A DNA stretch of 64,000 nt from a virus (IMGVR_UViG_3300023301_001182:28164-92163), one strand, 5' to 3'; positions 2,860 through 55,067 are shown, numbered from the stretch's first letter. Numbers and translations are program-made. Notes: generated by a model not told the origin, from the letters alone.

Positions 2860-5800
2860 ATGGGATGTCCAATAAAAGTAAAATTAATCAACGACTTAAT
2901 AGATAAGGGAGCTATTAATAGTAAAGAAGAGGTTATTAATTTAGCCAAATTTAAAGATTTAAATGAATCATATACCAAATTAGCTAATGGAGAGTATGAT
3001 GTAAATACCTATGGTAAAGATTTATTTACTGTAGAAGATATATCTGTTAAAGGTAGGTCTATTACTAAAATTATCCCTAATACTACAGTTTTAGATTTAA
3101 TGACAGATGTTGTTGAAGATAGTAAAGTAGAAGAGACTGTTAATGAAGAAGTTATTATTGATAAAAAAAATATAACAGATTTACTTGATGAAAGTGCAGA
3201 TAACTTCTTATATACTGTAGAAGAATCAGTACAAACTGAAACCACTGATCCTAATATAAATAGTAAAATATTATTTGATAATCAAGATAGAACTTTTACA
3301 GCTAAAGAAGTGTTAGATAATATTAAACTAAATTATTCTGGATTGAATGAAGGTGTTATTGCTTTAATTGATAAATTATTACCAAAGTTATATACTACTA
3401 ATTCTAAGATTAAATTTGTATCAGAAGCAACATTATCTAACACTAATGATGTAATGGAGTATAATCCTATTACAAATGAAGTTTTAATATCAAAAGATAG
3501 ATTAGAAAAGTATAATACAGAAACTGTAATAGCTTCTTTTTTACACGAAGTAATTCATAGTACTGTTATTAAAGCCTATAAGAATCCTGTTACTATGGAA
3601 GAAAAGATGTTTAAATCTTTCATAGATGATATATTTGCAAAGTATAAGGATACTGCAGATTTCAAAGAACAAGGGTTTGATAATGAAATGGAATTCATGG
3701 CTAAGATAATGACTGATTCTGAGTTTCAAGATAAAATTAAGAACACTGAAAGTCTTTGGGATAGAATAGTAGATTATATTAGAACACTTATAGGGTTACC
3801 TAAAAATAGTGAATATAATAATATTATAGAGGAGATAACTAAAGTTATAGAAGAGAGTAATTATGTAGGTGGTATAAATGATATGTTATATCAAAGCAGA
3901 GCTGAACGTAATTATTATGATATATCATCTACAGAAAAAAGACAGAAGAAAGTATTAGATGGTATTAAAGATAATTTAGAAGAGAGTGTTAGAAGATATG
4001 ACAATCTTATTAAAAAATTAAAAGACCCAAGTAAATTATCTAAATATTCAGATAAATTAAAAGACATTTTTGATAATTTAGAAAATTTTGATGATACACA
4101 AGAATGGTTAGCAATTAGTACATTTGTTGGTCAATTAAGTAGAAATATTAATAATTTAAAAGAAAGTTTTAATAAAGTAGATATTACAGCAGATGATATA
4201 GAGAAAACTGTTAATTTATACGATAAATATTTAACATCACATTCTTTAATAGAAGAAATATCTGATTTTGTATCTAAAGCTAAAGCTGATGAACATTTTT
4301 CAATTAGTAGGGAAGATATAATAAAACTACAAAATGACCTATCTATTGCTAAAGGAGAATATGATGCTTTGAAAAAAGATATTCAAAGTATGAAAGAAAA
4401 ATTTGCAACAAATCTTTTAAATAATAGAAAATATGCTTCAGAAGTATTACATAAATGGGAAATTAAATTAGGTAAAAAATATAATACTTTAGGACTTAAA
4501 GAAAATAAAACTAATTGGGTAGGTAGACAAATGAATACTATCTATAAAGAAGAAATTGATGCAGATGTTAAAGAAAATGCTAATAAATTAGTTAATAATG
4601 TAGATTATGATATTACTAAGTTAACAGGATTATTTGTATCTGGGATTAGCACTAATTCCAAGTTAATTAAAATCATGCAAAATCTTGTAAATGAAGTTAG
4701 GGGAAATATTATTAAAACAATTAGAAATAAAGACTTTGAATTAAAACCTATCTTTGATAAATTTGTAAAAGCTAAAGGAAATAGTTCTCCATCTGTAATG
4801 AATAAAAATATTTTAGAATATGATAAAGATGGTACTGCTTATTTAAAAGGTGATTATAAATTAGAATTTAGAGAATTATATCAAACTAAATTAAAGGATT
4901 ATAATGCTGAAAAAATAGCAGTTGAATCTAAATTTGGAATTGCTTCCTCTGAGTATCAAAAATTATATATTGATTCTGAGTTTAAAAATTGGGTTGATAA
5001 TAATACTATTACTATATCAGATGAAATGGGTAATGAATATAAAAGACCTATTGATAAGTGGAAGAATGATTTATCAAAATTACCTATAGAAGATAGAGAG
5101 GTTATTGAGGCATTTAGAAAGATTTCACAAGATAGCAATAAGTCTACATTTAAAATACAATCTTTAATTAGTAAACCTTTATTTGGTGGTAGATACTATA
5201 GTTTACCTGTAGCTACTAAAACCGATTTAGAAAGAGTATTAGAGAAACAAGTTGTTGGTACTATAAAAGATAAATGGTATGATTTAACTAAGGTTAGACC
5301 TGATGATATAGGTTATGAAATTATTAATACAGATTTAGCTGGAAAACCTATTTATAATGTTAAAATACATTATAGGGGTAAGTTAGATCCGTCTCAACAA
5401 TCCTTAGATGTATTTACTTTATATAGGCTAGAAGCTAGAAATGGTATAAGCTTTGAAGAGAAGCACAATGCTGAAACTAATGTTAATATGTTAGTAGATA
5501 TTTCTAAACATAAAGAATACTATCGTAGTACTGGTACTAGAGTACCATTTTTAAATATAAATATTAATAGAAATAAAGAAGCTACTAAAAAAGGAGAAGA
5601 GTCTAATACATATAAAAGAATGATATCATTGATGGAATCAAATATTTATGATATATTATATAAAGATGCTGGAAAGACTGGTAAAATAGATAATAATAAA
5701 GCTGTTGCATTAGCTATAGGGTGGACAGCTAAAGTTGGTTTATGGATGGCTGGCGTAGCTGGTTCTGTTAATGTATTAAATGGTAAAGCTCAGTTATTTT

Positions 5801-10773: not shown

Positions 10774-11375
10774 GGTATATATAAATTTGTTGGGTTATTT
10801 TTATGAATCTCTATATTTGGAAAATGTTCATGAAAATCTCTAATATCAAATGGGGATGTTATAATATGTTCACCATTTTTGCTTGGTATTCTACATATAA
10901 TATTATGATTCCCTTTATTTGGATTAACCTCATAAGTAAAATCTTTTATTAAGTTATATAACTTATCATTTACTTCACCATCTATATCTAAAATCCATTT
11001 TTTATCAATATCATCATTATGTAAACCTACAACAGAATTATAAGCTTTATGTGCTTTATTATGTGTTCCGTCTACTAATTGTAAAACAAGTTTACTAATA
11101 TGTTTCAATTGCATTTTTTTAAAACTTCTTCTATTAAGATTAATCCCAGCCCTAGCTTGAAATATTTCACAAAGTTGTATAATTTCTGGCATAACAAATT
11201 CAAAATGTTCTAAAGATTTAATATAATAACCTTTTACTAATCTTGAATTATTATTTGTACTATTAACTTTGCCTATTTTATGATCTTTCTTTCTTTGAAG
11301 AATTTGTATAAAATAAAAATCATCATCTGATCTAAAATCTAATAGTTCTTTTATTTGTTTATAATTATTTATCAT
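10770..11375 (-). CDS. Hypothetical phage protein
   Basis: 201-aa ORF with 4-nt overlaps to both neighbours; WILDID segment. Confidence 0.6.
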   Translation of the reverse strand: MINNYKQIKELLDFRSDDDFYFIQILQRKKDHKIGKVNSTNNNSRLVKGYYIKSLEHFEFVMPEIIQLCEIFQARAGINLNRRSFKKMQLKHISKLVLQLVDGTHNKAHKAYNSVVGLHNDDIDKKWILDIDGEVNDKLYNLIKDFTYEVNPNKGNHNIICRIPSKNGEHIITSPFDIRDFHEHFPNIEIHKNNPTNLYIP

Positions 11376-41877: not shown

Positions 41878-43069
41878 TTTTTACCATATTCGTTCATATT
41901 TTAATTTTGGTACAGACATATGGTTTCTTTTATACTTGATTATAGTATTAGTACATTCTTCTATATTATTATGTCTACATACATTAAATTTAAACCATTC
42001 TGATGTTAAATCCCCATACTTATTAAAATGTATAAATTTAGGTATAAAAAATAACTTTCTTGTTTTTACATAGTAATGGCCACTCTTTGTAGTATTTCTG
42101 TAGATGAAGAATCTTCTTCTAAAAATATTTAGAGTACGTATTCTAAATAATAATGTTCTTATTAATTCGTTCATTTTCTTACTCTATTTTTTAATATTCT
42201 TATGTAATTCTTCTCTTTAAACGTTGCTACTTTATAAAACTTTCTAAGCCCTTTATAATGTTCAACCATAATAACTTCTCCTTTAGGTGTTTTAAGTCGT
42301 TTAATACGACCAGTTAAATACTCACTACAAGGATGTGGTTTCTTATAATCTTCATATTTTGATAGTAGCACTAACATAATTATGAATGCTAATATTAAAA
42401 TTGGTGTCATATCTTTTTTATTATAGTTTTTCTTCGCTCAATTCTGTTATAAGTAACTTGTCTTTCAAAGAGACTGTAACCATCTGCTTGTTCATCAAAT
42501 ATCTCTTCAACAGATACTATTTCATCTACTGAATAACAATGATTGATTATTATAGCATATTCACCTATTGAGAATTTCATATTCTATGATTTTATGAAAT
42601 AGCTATATATAAAATAAAATATATATTATTTCTTTTGGTTCTTTTCTTTGTTGACTATTAAATAAAAAATATAAAAGCTTTGTTTATCTCACCCATTGTG
42701 TATTCCTGATCTACTAGAAGTCACCCTAGAATACTTTTTCCATAATATACTTATCTAGCAAGTATATTTTTTGTGATGCAGGTATAATTTAACCAGGTTA
42801 CCTCTTAATCTGGACTTTTATATTTTTGTATTAATAATAAGTTTTTCGGGTCTTTCAGGGATACTCTTACTTTAAATATGATATTGGGGTTATCCCTTAC
42901 ACATAGCCAATATCGTACAGAGCTTTACTACTTATTATTAAATACTTCTCTTTTTTAGTTAAAATAAAGCATTCTAAGACACAATATTATATGGTCTGGA
43001 TATCATATATCATTTACATATAATAATAGAGTCAGAATATCTTAAAATGCTTTAAAATTATATAGTTAG

Positions 43070-43210
43070 TTATATTTTATGCTTCAAAGTTTTAATTACT
43101 ACTTGTGGAACAGGGTTTTTAATATATCTGTTCTTAACTTGACCGCTTTTAGTGGTATATTGTCCAACTAAGATTTTAGCTGGCTCTGATGTAATATTTT
43201 GTAATCTCAT
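43070..43210 (-). CDS. Small 46-aa ORF not in the ORF track
   Basis: MRLQNITSEPAKILVGQYTTKSGQVKNRYIKNPVPQVVIKTLKHKI*, lying between two inverted-repeat modules. Confidence 0.45.
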   Translation of the reverse strand: MRLQNITSEPAKILVGQYTTKSGQVKNRYIKNPVPQVVIKTLKHKI

Positions 43211-43854
43211 TCTATCGTCTTTTATGTTTTTAGAAAGAGAATATGACCTTGGTACATGTCATGCCTCATATAATCCTTGATACTCTAACTAGTATGTTAG
43301 TATATAATTATATGTTATCATATTCTCTTTGTATATTTATAATTTAATATGTTATAATACCTATATAAAAACATAATAATGCTGATATAAAGTATATTAT
43401 AACTTTTAATACTGGTCTAGTTGTTGTATATGTATAATAACTCAAAATAATCATTAAATTATCCCAAACATTATACAAACATACAACACCTATTACTAAA
43501 AATAATACAGATAGTGCTCCCATTATTCTTATTTTTCAAAGTCAAAAGATCCTAAATCAAATGTAGGATCAGTTACTACTACTCCGTTAATTACTTGAAA
43601 ATGTGCTTTCATGATAATGCAAATCCTTTAGTAGTTGCAAACCTGCAATGACTATTTTTCATAGCCCTATATATTTTGTCAGTGCTTTTAAAGGTTTTAA
43701 CACCTTTATTACTTCTTGTTTTACCATAACTATGTCCTGTTGGAATAAGTTGTTGGTCTTTACGATTGAATAAATTCATTGCCATTCCTATGAATGCAAG
43801 TACTGCTAATTTAAAATAGTTTTTCATGATTGTAATTGTTTAATTAATTTAGGT

Positions 43855-43907
43855 TAATGTAAAAAGGGGAGTCGAACCCCTATTACTGTTACTCATACTT
43901 TACATTA
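43855..43907 (-). ncRNA. tRNA minihelix-like element
   Basis: UAAUGUAAA/UUUACAUUA stem with T arm GGGG-UUCGACU-CCCC, just downstream of the tmRNA. Confidence 0.5.
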
Positions 43908-43930
43908 CTCGTTTAGAGTATTGTTATTTG

Positions 43931-44309
43931 TGGACCTGCGCGGAGTCGAACCGCGGTATCCCAACATATTTCATAATAATTCTTATACAGCTTCACGTTT
44001 GTTTAAATTCTTTACGCTAGAGTAGGAACGATTGGATTACAATCGAATCTCCACCACTTGGTTTTTGTAGAACCTAGAAACTAGTGTTGCCTTTGTTTTT
44101 ATTGCTTAGGCTGCAAATGCTAACTCAACAGTTAACTCATCAGAACCTTGTTCTGCAGTTACTGTATTATTAAGTATAGAATGAACCACACTCATGTTAG
44201 CGACGATTTGATCTGTGTTGTTTCCATTTAAGAAAATTCACCTTAGTTTACAGTTATCTCTCTGGCTGTTCATTATTAATCTACATATCAAGGCATTCCA
44301 GTCAAGCCC
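43931..44309 (-). ncRNA. ssrA: tmRNA with predicted 39-aa tag (44225..44106)
   Basis: 5' GGGCUUG pairs with 3' CAGGUCC-A and includes the G3-U70 alanine determinant. T arm CGCGG-UUCGACU-CCGCG. Internal frame ends ...ELAFAA*. Confidence 0.9.
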
Positions 44310-45310
44310 ATATTGTTTAAGATATAATTAATAATCCTACTATACAGTTAATAACAATCCAAAAGGCAGCTATTATCCATAAATAAATAGGATCAGTATT
44401 AAATTTTTTTTCAAGTATATTATAAATAGTTACTATAGGTATGAATATATATAGTATAGTAATTATTATTATAATAATTGTTATAAACATAAATTTTAAT
44501 TCATTCATAATATTTGGTTTAATTAGTTAAATTAAAAACACTTATTATTTATTACAATTTCAAAGGACTAGTTTAGCGGAGTGTGTATCCTTTTTGCTCT
44601 AGTAGTAATATAGTTATAATAAGTGTTTTATGATAAAAAACTCTTTGTCCTATCAGGGAATATAAATATACAGTGGTCCTGTTATTATGTTCCTGTACTT
44701 ATATCTTTAAATAAACATCACTGCTGATACAGTTTTATAATAATACTACTACCCTTATATCCACTGTAGTAAACCTAATTTTAAGGCGGGATTATGTGTG
44801 TTTTTATTTTGTTTATCTTTAAGCAAAGAGTTAGTCTATTTAATGTTATCAAGTGGGTAAGCATCTAAAATTGAAGATTTACTTACTGTAATTGTAACAT
44901 CTCCATCATCGTAGTTATCTATAAAACTAAGTGTTTCATTAGTGTTATTTTCTGAAACTCTCATTTTACTGTTTAGAAATGCTTGATCTAATGCTTTTGT
45001 TACATGAAGTTTAGCAAGCTCGGTAGCTACATTGATTACCAATAATTGTAATCCTTCAGGTGTTAAAGGCGAAGAAAAATTTTTAGCCTCTTCTATTAGT
45101 AGTTGTTCTACTGTCGGTATCATAATTAAATTTTTATGTTGTATTGTTATAATATAAATAGCTGCAGTCATGATTTGCTATTTAACCCTACTACACACAA
45201 TTAAGTCCGTAAGGCACTATTTATATTAATATTATATAAAAAAAGAGAACTTTACTCAATATAAAAATACTTCAGTTTAATATACCTTTAAAGCTCTCTC
45301 TTTTGCATTC

Positions 45311-53612: not shown

Positions 53613-55067
53613 ATGGATTCGAGCAAAGAAATTAAACTAGGAAATGATGTTAGGGATAAACTAATGTTGGGTATTAATAAGTTAGCATCAGTAGTATTAA
53701 CTACAATGGGGCCATCTGGTAGTACTGTTATTATAGCAGATGAATATGGTGATCCATATATAACTAAAGACGGTGTATCTGTTTCTAACTATATTAAACT
53801 AGAAGACCCAGTAGAGAATATTGCTGCTACTTTATTAAAACAGGTAGCACAAAATACAGTTGAACAGGCAGGAGATGGTACAACTACCTCTATTTGTCTA
53901 GCACAGTCACTAATTACTGAAGGGTATAAATTATTAGGTAAGGGAGAATCTTATAATGATTTAAAGGTTGAGTTAGAGAAATTAGAAGAGTACACAGTTA
54001 ATAATCTTGCCTGTGCTTCTAAAGAATTAAAGAATAAAAATATAGTTGACGTAGCTACTATCTCATCTAATAATGATGGAGTTATTGGTGATATTATTCA
54101 GAAAGCATATAATCATTCTACCATAGTTAAAGTTCAAGAAGGTAATAGTAATCTAGATGAATTAACTCTTATAAATGGTATGGAATTAGATACTAGTTAT
54201 ATTGATAATGCCTTTATAAATAAACCTCATCAACAAGCTGTAGAGCATACAGAACCCTTGGTAATGCTAGTAGATGGGAAATTAGAGTCATTGGATAACA
54301 TTAAAAGAGTAATATTAGAAGTTAAGAGTAGGCCTATAGTTATTATAGCAGATCATTTTGGAGAACAAGTTCTTAAATTATTAAAAGAGAATTATAATAA
54401 AGGAGCTTTAAATGTTGTATTAGTTAAGTCTCCAGGATTTGCTAATCATAGAAAGAATCTAATGGATGATATAGCTGATTACACAGGAGCCACTGTACTT
54501 AATCCATCTACAACATATACTAATATAAATGTATTAGGTACACTAGATAGTATTTATATTACAAAGCATACGTGCACATTATTAAACGAAGGTAATTTAT
54601 TAGCATCTAATGAAAAGTTAGCAAACTTAAAATCAACATTAGCTATATCTACAGATAGTAATGATATAGTATTATTACAACAACGTATAACTAATCTTAC
54701 AGGTAAGGTTGCAATCATTAGAGTTGGTGGTAATTCTGAAGTGGAGATGAAAGAACGTAAGGATAGAATAGAAGATGCAGTATTAGCTGTCCAGTGTGGA
54801 TTAGAAGAAGGAATTATTGAAGGGGGAGGAGTTGCACTATATAAGATAGCAAATACCTCAAAGAATAAATTTAAAGATTGTCTTCGTGATCCATTATATA
54901 CAATACTAGAGAATGGTGCAGTTATAGATTTTGAAACGTCAATGTTTAAACAGAATATTATTGATCCATTAAAGGTTACTAGATGTGCATTACAAAATGC
55001 TATATCAGTATCTAAAACTATACTTAGTACTAAAGCTATTGTATTAAATGAAAGATTATGGAAGTAA
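53613..55067 (+). CDS. groEL: GroEL-like chaperonin (484 aa)
   Basis: TMGPSG, ITKDGVSV, AGDGTTT, VKSPGF, EMKERKDRIEDA, GIIEGGG, IIDPLKV. Confidence 0.95.
   Translation: MDSSKEIKLGNDVRDKLMLGINKLASVVLTTMGPSGSTVIIADEYGDPYITKDGVSVSNYIKLEDPVENIAATLLKQVAQNTVEQAGDGTTTSICLAQSLITEGYKLLGKGESYNDLKVELEKLEEYTVNNLACASKELKNKNIVDVATISSNNDGVIGDIIQKAYNHSTIVKVQEGNSNLDELTLINGMELDTSYIDNAFINKPHQQAVEHTEPLVMLVDGKLESLDNIKRVILEVKSRPIVIIADHFGEQVLKLLKENYNKGALNVVLVKSPGFANHRKNLMDDIADYTGATVLNPSTTYTNINVLGTLDSIYITKHTCTLLNEGNLLASNEKLANLKSTLAISTDSNDIVLLQQRITNLTGKVAIIRVGGNSEVEMKERKDRIEDAVLAVQCGLEEGIIEGGGVALYKIANTSKNKFKDCLRDPLYTILENGAVIDFETSMFKQNIIDPLKVTRCALQNAISVSKTILSTKAIVLNERLWK

Follow-up and report, generated by a model that had tools for sequence, protein, structure and literature searches.

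The viral DNA analysed here, a window of 64,000 nucleotides (bases 28164-92163 of a 92,163-bp IMG/VR virus record rated 91% complete by CheckV), probably encodes a working one-piece tmRNA that relies on its host for ribosome rescue and appends a tag of 39 residues, the conserved core of which would act as a second recognition element. In textbooks, tmRNA tags are short degrons. The gene in the window belongs to a phage tmRNA family with tags three to five times the host length, found across several crAss-like lineages and Calle-like podoviruses with flavobacteria-type hosts. Phage tmRNAs as such are already known, and have so far mostly just been counted; a conserved long tag core is reported for none of those compared here.

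The sole RNA gene reported in the window by ARAGORN is a tmRNA of 380 nt on the minus strand (43930-44309). Rfam matches RF00023 to 43928-44309 over the complete model (1-374), with an E-value of 2.3e-17 and a score of 51.5 bits, a small margin of 4.5 bits above the gathering cut-off of 47. A first-pass annotation had proposed a phage-borne tmRNA at this place, and both programs call one. The features of the gene and its surroundings are as follows.

43930..44309, minus strand: one-piece tmRNA gene (43928-44309 in Rfam); ARAGORN and Rfam RF00023
44303..44309, minus strand: 5' strand of the acceptor stem, GGGCUUG, with the G3 of G3.U70; direct reading and family pairing
43931..43955, minus strand: T arm, 3' acceptor strand and discriminator A; direct reading and Rfam
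44237..44268, minus strand: PK1 region, CAGCC AGAGAGAUAACUG UAAACU AAGGUGAA, the family signature; Rfam alignment to PK1
44226..44236, minus strand: single-stranded spacer of 11 nt, UUUUCUUAAAU, in which positions -5 and -4 relative to the resume codon are U and A; Rfam and family comparison
44238..44240, minus strand: in-frame UGA inside the conserved AAGGUGAA, four codons before GGA; direct reading
44109..44225, minus strand: tag frame of 39 codons, very likely read from the resume codon GGA (44225-44223); frame conservation
44169..44210, minus strand: conserved core QIVANMSVVHSILN, codons 6-19; tag alignments, dN/dS and AF2
44154..44156, minus strand: GCA, the resume codon proposed by ARAGORN for a 16-residue tag, rejected here; ARAGORN against family comparison
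44106..44126, minus strand: degron-like C-terminal end ELAFAA and the UAA stop (44108-44106); direct reading and ARAGORN
44102..44116, minus strand: small hairpin resembling helix 5, UUGC-AGCCUAA-GCAA, whose loop contains the stop codon; direct reading of the sequence
43865..43881, minus strand: terminator-like hairpin AGGGG-UUCGACU-CCCCU followed by UUUU; direct reading and terminator scoring

Related genes come from several searches. Among isolated phages, blastn finds the gene in Cellulophaga phages only, namely phi14:2, Calle_1-3, phi38:1 and phi40:1. A first motif scan of IMG/VR, with the resume site in the pattern, gave 21 loci. A second scan used the PK1 signature alone (AGAGAGAUAACU, 5-14 nt, AAGGUGAA) and left the resume site and the reading frame unconstrained; more than 119 viral loci are among the matches listed. 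With chance matches and truncated copies removed, the collection drawn from the matches listed comprises 120 loci with 86 distinct reading frames. Because AAGGUGAA is part of both patterns and the resume codon part of the first, some of the agreement in those letters stems from the patterns themselves. The window conforms to the family signature, in which AGAGAGAUAACU and AAGGUGAA are followed after 9-12 nt by UAAAY-G(G/A)N. A local run of ARAGORN finds 56 of the 86 family genes and misses the other 30.

The ends of the window gene, GGGCUUG (44309-44303) and CAGGUCC (43938-43932), form seven of seven pairs, including G3.U70, a pair that is an alanine identity determinant. The T arm reads CGCGG-UUCGACU-CCGCG at 43955-43939 on the minus strand, and the tRNA-like domain has no anticodon arm. 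Both elements are as intact, and the acceptor stem as alanine-like, as first described. The discriminator A (43931) is followed in the DNA by CAA, so CCA is not encoded, which likewise agrees with the first-pass annotation. PK1 is aligned by Rfam at 44268-44237 with some non-canonical pairs, and its distance of 11 nt to the resume codon is that of the consensus. Co-variation of CAG/CUG to GAG/CUC can be seen by eye in PK1, most of which is fixed in sequence by the search patterns. One related strain carries three extra nucleotides (TAA when read on the plus strand) at 44249 inside the PK1 region; the same strain differs from the window at 44060, 44074 and 44075, all downstream of the tag frame. 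All seven acceptor pairs are present in each of the 56 family genes with ARAGORN coordinates. In these, G1-C, G2-C and G3.U are invariant, and pairs 4-6 vary in a compensatory fashion (GC or CG at the fourth, UA, GC, CG or AU at the fifth, CG, UA or AU at the sixth).

Genes for tmRNA are common integration sites of phages, and fragments of them occur in prophages (PMC9004378, PMC11590407), so the gene might be a dead remnant, for instance a fragment of host ssrA from such a site. This is scarcely credible for a full-length gene with all model positions matched that lies inside a 91%-complete crAss-like genome, and whose family shows compensatory changes in the acceptor stem together with purifying selection. 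The strict family motif is also absent from bacteria and archaea apart from one chance match, in a Lactococcus protein gene, when 185,579 species genomes are scanned with the exact pattern, one genome per species.

About 50 nt past the 3' end of the tmRNA is the hairpin at 43865-43881, which is scored as an intrinsic terminator. In its loop and closing pairs the hairpin repeats the T-loop of the tmRNA (GGUUCGACUCC), and together with GUAA/UUAC on its flanks it could also fold into a small minihelix of acceptor plus T arm. The hairpin is not conserved in relatives.

The length of the tag depends on where translation resumes. After UUAAAU, the first-pass annotation had read a frame beginning with GGA at 44225. 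This frame is open for 39 codons to the UAA at 44108-44106, reads exactly as had been written, and is closed upstream by the UGA at 44240-44238. An open frame of 39 codons has a chance probability of about 0.05 at the base composition of the window. Taken by itself, the window thus proves little about how long the tag is, and the case rests on comparative data. Rfam places its consensus UAAuU-GCa on UAAAU-GGA with high posterior probability and at the identical 11-nt distance from PK1. A U at position -5 and an A at -4 relative to the resume codon (UAAAU-GGA in the window) are found in the window, in the 120 family loci and in host-type genes. Miller et al. in 2008 are said to have described a role for U85 and A86 of E. 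coli, the equivalents of these two positions.

The host-type genes were obtained by scanning metagenomes for back-translated GE[ND]NYALAA, a pattern in which the tag is fixed and the upstream context free, and provide 111 usable loci. Five were sampled and all five were confirmed by ARAGORN, with the resume codon at gene position 94-97. The pentamers before their Gly codon GGC include UAAUU (28 loci), UAAAC (26), UAACU (18) and UAAAU (12). The same set is found before the resume codon in the phage family, where all 86 frames are open from a G or D codon directly after UAAAU, UAAAC, UAAUU or UAACU. The family resume site lies 9-12 nt past AAGGUGAA, and the tags of the 86 frames have 24-49 residues.

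Conservation of the frame points to this site. The motif GCN-AAY-AUG (Ala-Asn-Met) is present in 83 of the 86 family frames with the UAAAY-G site in frame. Eight distances, from 15 to 51 nt, separate the resume codon from this motif, and all are multiples of three; so is every one of the 14 distances between the motif and the stop codon. Internal stops across the 86 frames number 0 in the tag frame versus 396 and 278 in the other two. In the N-terminal part, upstream of the motif, the tag frame has no stop in 1083 codons, compared with 111 and 42 stops in the other frames. Strains related to the window phage, represented by contigs from three public runs, differ from it at four places inside the frame, all upstream of the tag start given by ARAGORN. 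The changes in codons 8, 10 and 13 are synonymous third-position changes, and that in codon 21 replaces Thr by Ala in the linker.

Translation thus very likely resumes at GGA 44225 or within one or two codons of it, to judge from these comparisons. The alignment with host and phage tmRNAs points to GGA 44225, and the original assignment is upheld by frame conservation, in-frame indels, synonymous variation and the upstream context of host-type genes. A dN/dS of 0.62 in the N-terminal part indicates weak selection, so that the resume codon may be displaced from GGA by a codon or two. With resumption at GGA 44225, rescued proteins would receive Ala plus 39 residues.

ARAGORN's own output differs. 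It places the resume codon at GCA 44156, which would give a 16-residue tag (AEQG...LAFAA) with the 23 upstream codons untranslated and kept at the level of the RNA. This is the start (GCA GAA CAA) that the first-pass annotation had named as the alternative that would overturn its own assignment. In GUAACU-GCA, too, the bases at -5 and -4 are U and A. The site, however, falls within the variable linker, and the relatives have nothing that corresponds to it. In the 56 family genes that ARAGORN finds, its tag start falls on the UAAAY-G site in 11, and skips 4 to 28 codons in the others. With 0-28 codons skipped from one homologue to the next, its starts are not homologous with one another. The 23 codons are also constrained as coding sequence, with 0 stops in 1083 N-terminal codons, indels in threes and a core dN/dS of 0.29. 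Finally, GCA is at gene position 154, remote from the 84-97 spanned by the family and the host-type genes; GGA in the window is at 85, and the family range is 84-91. A start at GCA 44156 is accordingly quite improbable, and resumption at GGA stands.

The invariant AUG of the motif, kept in 83 of the 86 relatives, could instead be an ordinary start codon, and the RNA also, or instead, an mRNA for a free peptide of 29 residues. Initiation of translation in Bacteroidota works without a Shine-Dalgarno sequence. Yet the frame upstream of the AUG is free of stops across eight length classes, a Gln five codons upstream is invariant while its codon alternates between the synonymous CAA and CAG, and the peptide ends in an SsrA-type degron. 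A free peptide is consequently given very little probability, and the long tag read from GGA remains the preferred reading. The extra part of the tag is almost certainly translated, as judged by comparison, because the motif is kept in about 85 related phage tmRNAs.

The tag read from GGA appears to consist of a variable N-terminal part, a conserved core (Q..ANM..V..IL) and a variable linker with a hydrophobic ...LAFAA end of SsrA type. An ALAA-like degron had been expected for such a tag, and the window tag ends in ELAFAA. The family core motif is Q-[IVL]-x-A-N-M-x-x-V-[HFY]-x-[IL]-[IL], with QIVANMSVVHSIL as the window version. In the tag alignments the Q, A, N and M are invariant, and ANM is present in 83 of the 86 unique relatives. 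The codons for the conserved residues vary synonymously: CAA/CAG for Gln, GCA/GCU for Ala, AAC/AAU for Asn, and six codons for Ile/Leu. Values of dN/dS over the family (Nei-Gojobori) are 0.29 for the core, 0.62 for the N-terminal part, 0.57 for the linker and C-terminal part, and 0.29 for the last five codons. Between pairs of sequences, the synonymous sites of the core have diverged strongly (pS 0.63). These values argue that the core is under purifying selection at the level of the peptide.

The core is probably helical. AF2, given a tag alignment of 78 sequences, predicts a helix over tag residues 3-24 with a pLDDT of about 83, and leaves the C-terminal part ill-defined. An amphipathic or membrane helix was considered and rejected, since the hydrophobic moment is a modest 0.2-0.3.

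No natural protein family with the tag core was found when a tag profile, with a 45-residue relative as its first row, was searched among longer proteins. Of the four matches, two are ORFs predicted over tmRNA genes and the other two are singleton fusions, so the core does not appear to be borrowed from a recognisable protein family. The two fusion proteins (195 residues, on an NCBI contig of 6.5 kb, and 115 residues) end in the tag core and a degron. In the longer one, an SU10-type head-tail adaptor (PF24175) extends to about residue 173 and is followed by ...DNAQIEANMNKVFSLL...VAA from a shared SAEAD. More than 60 relatives of this adaptor lack the tag part, and the 195-residue fusion is therefore either an assembly chimera or a rare recombinant.

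The window phage has a terminase, a portal and a major head protein of crAss type in PHROG searches. The head protein shares 60% identity with its counterpart in Cellulophaga phage phi14:2 (Crassvirales, Steigviridae, Akihdevirus), compared with about 47% for gut crAss-like phages. The window comes from a crAss-like phage, with phi14:2 as its nearest isolate and hosts of the flavobacteria type. In public runs, the window DNA is best represented in saline-lake metagenomes.

No SmpB gene had been seen in the window, and PF01668 is in fact absent from the entire 92-kb virus record. It is absent from all 36 carrier records examined, the window record included, and 26 of the other 35 are at least 90% complete. 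Host SmpB must therefore be used. Neither ClpP nor Lon was found in the window phage. When ORFs within 6 kb of the tmRNA were clustered, no conserved neighbour gene emerged; the commonest ORF family occurs in 17 of 86 loci, and none includes the window.

A phage-encoded partner was also sought by comparing 12 complete carrier genomes, the window's among them, all against all with ORFs of at least 45 residues, a comparison that very divergent proteins escape. Not one protein family occurs in all 12 genomes. Most widespread are the families of the crAss portal, capsid and terminase, found in 10 of the 12, and these ten fall into at least four gene-content groups. The other two carriers, Calle and a 68-kb record, make up a podovirus group of their own. 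A first search had suggested that 12 of 26 complete carriers were without a crAss capsid; this was overturned by blastp, which shows a shared capsid family in 10 of the 12 genomes.

A carrier comparison of this kind bears on whether the extra part of the tag does anything at all. It could be a functionless, tolerated spacer, with the core kept by recent common descent or by RNA structure, and it would fit this that no phage partner and no natural protein family with the motif were found and that the N-terminal part and linker evolve fast. The core, however, has a pS of 0.63 and yet its residues are fixed (dN/dS 0.29), and the family spans crAss-like and Calle-like phages that have almost no genes in common. 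With so few genes shared among the carriers, descent alone does not explain the invariance of the core. A spacer is thus considered unlikely, and a core selected as peptide is preferred.

Several other features of the carriers may be mentioned. A GroEL-like chaperonin gene (phrog_5725, E 3e-116) lies at 53613-55067 on the plus strand of the window. Matches to PF00118 occur in 9 of the 36 tmRNA-carrying records, both crAss-like and Calle-like, a count taken over carriers alone. In IMGVR_UViG_3300020045_007777 (101.7 kb) the tmRNA gene, at about 4494-5660, is interrupted in its T-loop, where roughly 730 nt have been inserted, with GGGAGUU at about 4902-4908 and CGAUUCUCCC-CGUCUCC-A at about 5636-5655. 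The T-loop is the classic site of introns in tmRNA and tRNA genes; Rfam detects no group I intron in this split gene at E below 0.1. Another carrier contig has a group I intron (RF00028, 63.5 bits) at 10833-11070, about 10 kb from its tmRNA. An intact family member with a 38-residue tag, 5' GGGGCUG and 3' CAGCUCC-A, is found on the minus strand of IMGVR_UViG_3300025696_000001 (100.5 kb) from about 9410. It is missed by ARAGORN and by Rfam at E below 0.1, and its T-arm region looks non-canonical.

The ortholog in phi14:2 is located at 4031-4502 on the rightward strand (KC821624.1 / NC_021806.1). It scores 46 bits, just below the Rfam cut-off of 47, and is not annotated as an RNA. In GenBank three small 'hypothetical protein' CDSs were placed over the gene, and these were later removed by RefSeq, where the tmRNA lies between g004 (2194-2904) and g006 (4602-4901). 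RNAs from the g004-g006 intergenic region have been published as 'non-coding RNA' of unknown function; they are commoner than most mRNAs, appear from the first time point and persist (bioRxiv 10.1101/2020.03.07.982082). One of these abundant RNAs is probably the tmRNA, since both occupy the same interval. For the window sequence itself, no RNA runs are listed among the public runs.

The surroundings of the window gene are poor in ORFs, with none of at least 60 residues over about 1.2 kb on one side (the intervals are 42410-43609 and 44509-44836). An ORF-poor interval, highly transcribed, also occurs in phi14:2 (2905-4601). The two window intervals may hold more structured RNAs.

From established tmRNA biology, a path for the phage RNA can be proposed. 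Host enzymes would trim the 3' end and add CCA, and host AlaRS would charge the RNA by way of G3.U70. Host SmpB and EF-Tu would then bring it to ribosomes stalled on broken messages. By comparison with its relatives, translation would resume at GGA 44225, 11 nt after PK1, and proceed through 39 codons to the UAA. The ...LAFAA end would most likely still deliver the tagged proteins to AAA+ proteases of the host. The conserved core would be a second recognition element for a protease or adaptor encoded by the host, in analogy to the Lon determinants of Mycoplasma. In this manner the phage would restore the capacity for ribosome rescue during infection and would also decide what becomes of the tagged proteins.

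The role of the core as an extra determinant for a protease or adaptor is one that we infer by analogy only. The first-pass annotation had suggested that the additional residues could change the choice of adaptor or protease, or add a functional peptide to rescued proteins; a conserved core is compatible with either. Roles suggested for phage tmRNAs are to keep the hijacked translation apparatus running and to recycle amino acids (PMC9004378). As a conjecture, the phage tmRNA would relieve ribosome stalling caused by mRNA-cleaving defences. A more specific and rather doubtful idea is that the core helix is a phage-specific routing signal, which might direct products to a particular host protease or adaptor, occupy such a factor, or defuse a defence based on stalling or mRNA cleavage. 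If true, trans-translation would be reprogrammed by the virus and not merely supplemented.

The family suggests that viruses tune the fate of ribosome-rescue products, because the motif is kept at the protein level and no phage partner shared by the carriers was found. Since phi14:2 and Calle are cultured with Cellulophaga hosts, the question is directly testable. Standard tools miss or misread such genes, as seen in the 30 of 86 missed by ARAGORN, its inconsistent tag starts, and the score of phi14:2 below the Rfam cut-off. The data added here are the synonymous variants at the strain level, the upstream context of host-type genes, the partner search in 12 genomes, and the link to the phi14:2 'non-coding RNA'. 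No description of a long conserved tag was found in the literature searched, and neither the tag length nor the motif is given in the Cellulophaga phage papers found.

The closest known tmRNAs are those of phi14:2 (KC821624.1 4031-4502) and of Calle_1, phi38:1 and phi40:1, which belong to the same family. Like the window gene they have the PK1 signature and UAAAY-G, and their tags contain the Q..ANM..V..IL core and finish in hydrophobic residues. In the blastn comparison, DNA identity to phi14:2 amounts to 79% over 40% of the query. Counted from UAAAY-G, the tag has 38 residues in phi14:2, 30 in the Calle type and 39 in the window. The N-terminal part, the linker and the C-terminal residues differ, with KLAMVA at the end in phi14:2 and VAVGV in the Calle type, versus ELAFAA in the window. 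In the Calle records the gene is annotated just as 'tmRNA', and the Calle literature merely counts 'one tmRNA' (PMC8776804).

Chromosomal SsrA of Bacteroidota type (RF00023) resembles the phage RNA in overall architecture, in the Gly resume codon, in the pentamers before it and in the ...AA end. In contrast to the 39 residues of the window tag, its tag has 9; PK1 differs in sequence, and the resume codon is at 94-97 rather than 85. In the Rfam alignment the downstream pseudoknots of the window tmRNA are also fewer or shorter.

Other phage tmRNAs have been reported in the mycobacteriophage Bxz1 group and in Bacillus phage G (PMC4131195). Phage tmRNAs are also reported in about 2.3% of phage genomes, including a two-piece type in OM43 phage Melnitz and the pelagimyophages (PMC9004378), and huge phages carry both ssrA and smpB (PMC7162821). 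These genes (PMC4131195, PMC9004378, PMC7162821) are likewise phage-borne and mostly reported without smpB, but belong to different lineages with different hosts, and a conserved long tag core is reported for none of them. The ssrA of Melnitz is in two pieces and accompanied by a riboswitch, whereas the window tmRNA is in one piece.

The SsrA tag of Mycoplasma, with 27 residues, has been called an 'unusual long' tag that is recognised by, and tuned to, Lon (Gur and Sauer 2008, as cited in PMC8403727). It is encoded by a bacterial chromosomal gene in organisms without ClpXP, and has no sequence similarity to the phage core. The likeness is one of principle: in the same source (PMC8403727), residues inside the Mycoplasma tag, and not its C-terminus alone, are held to direct the choice of protease.
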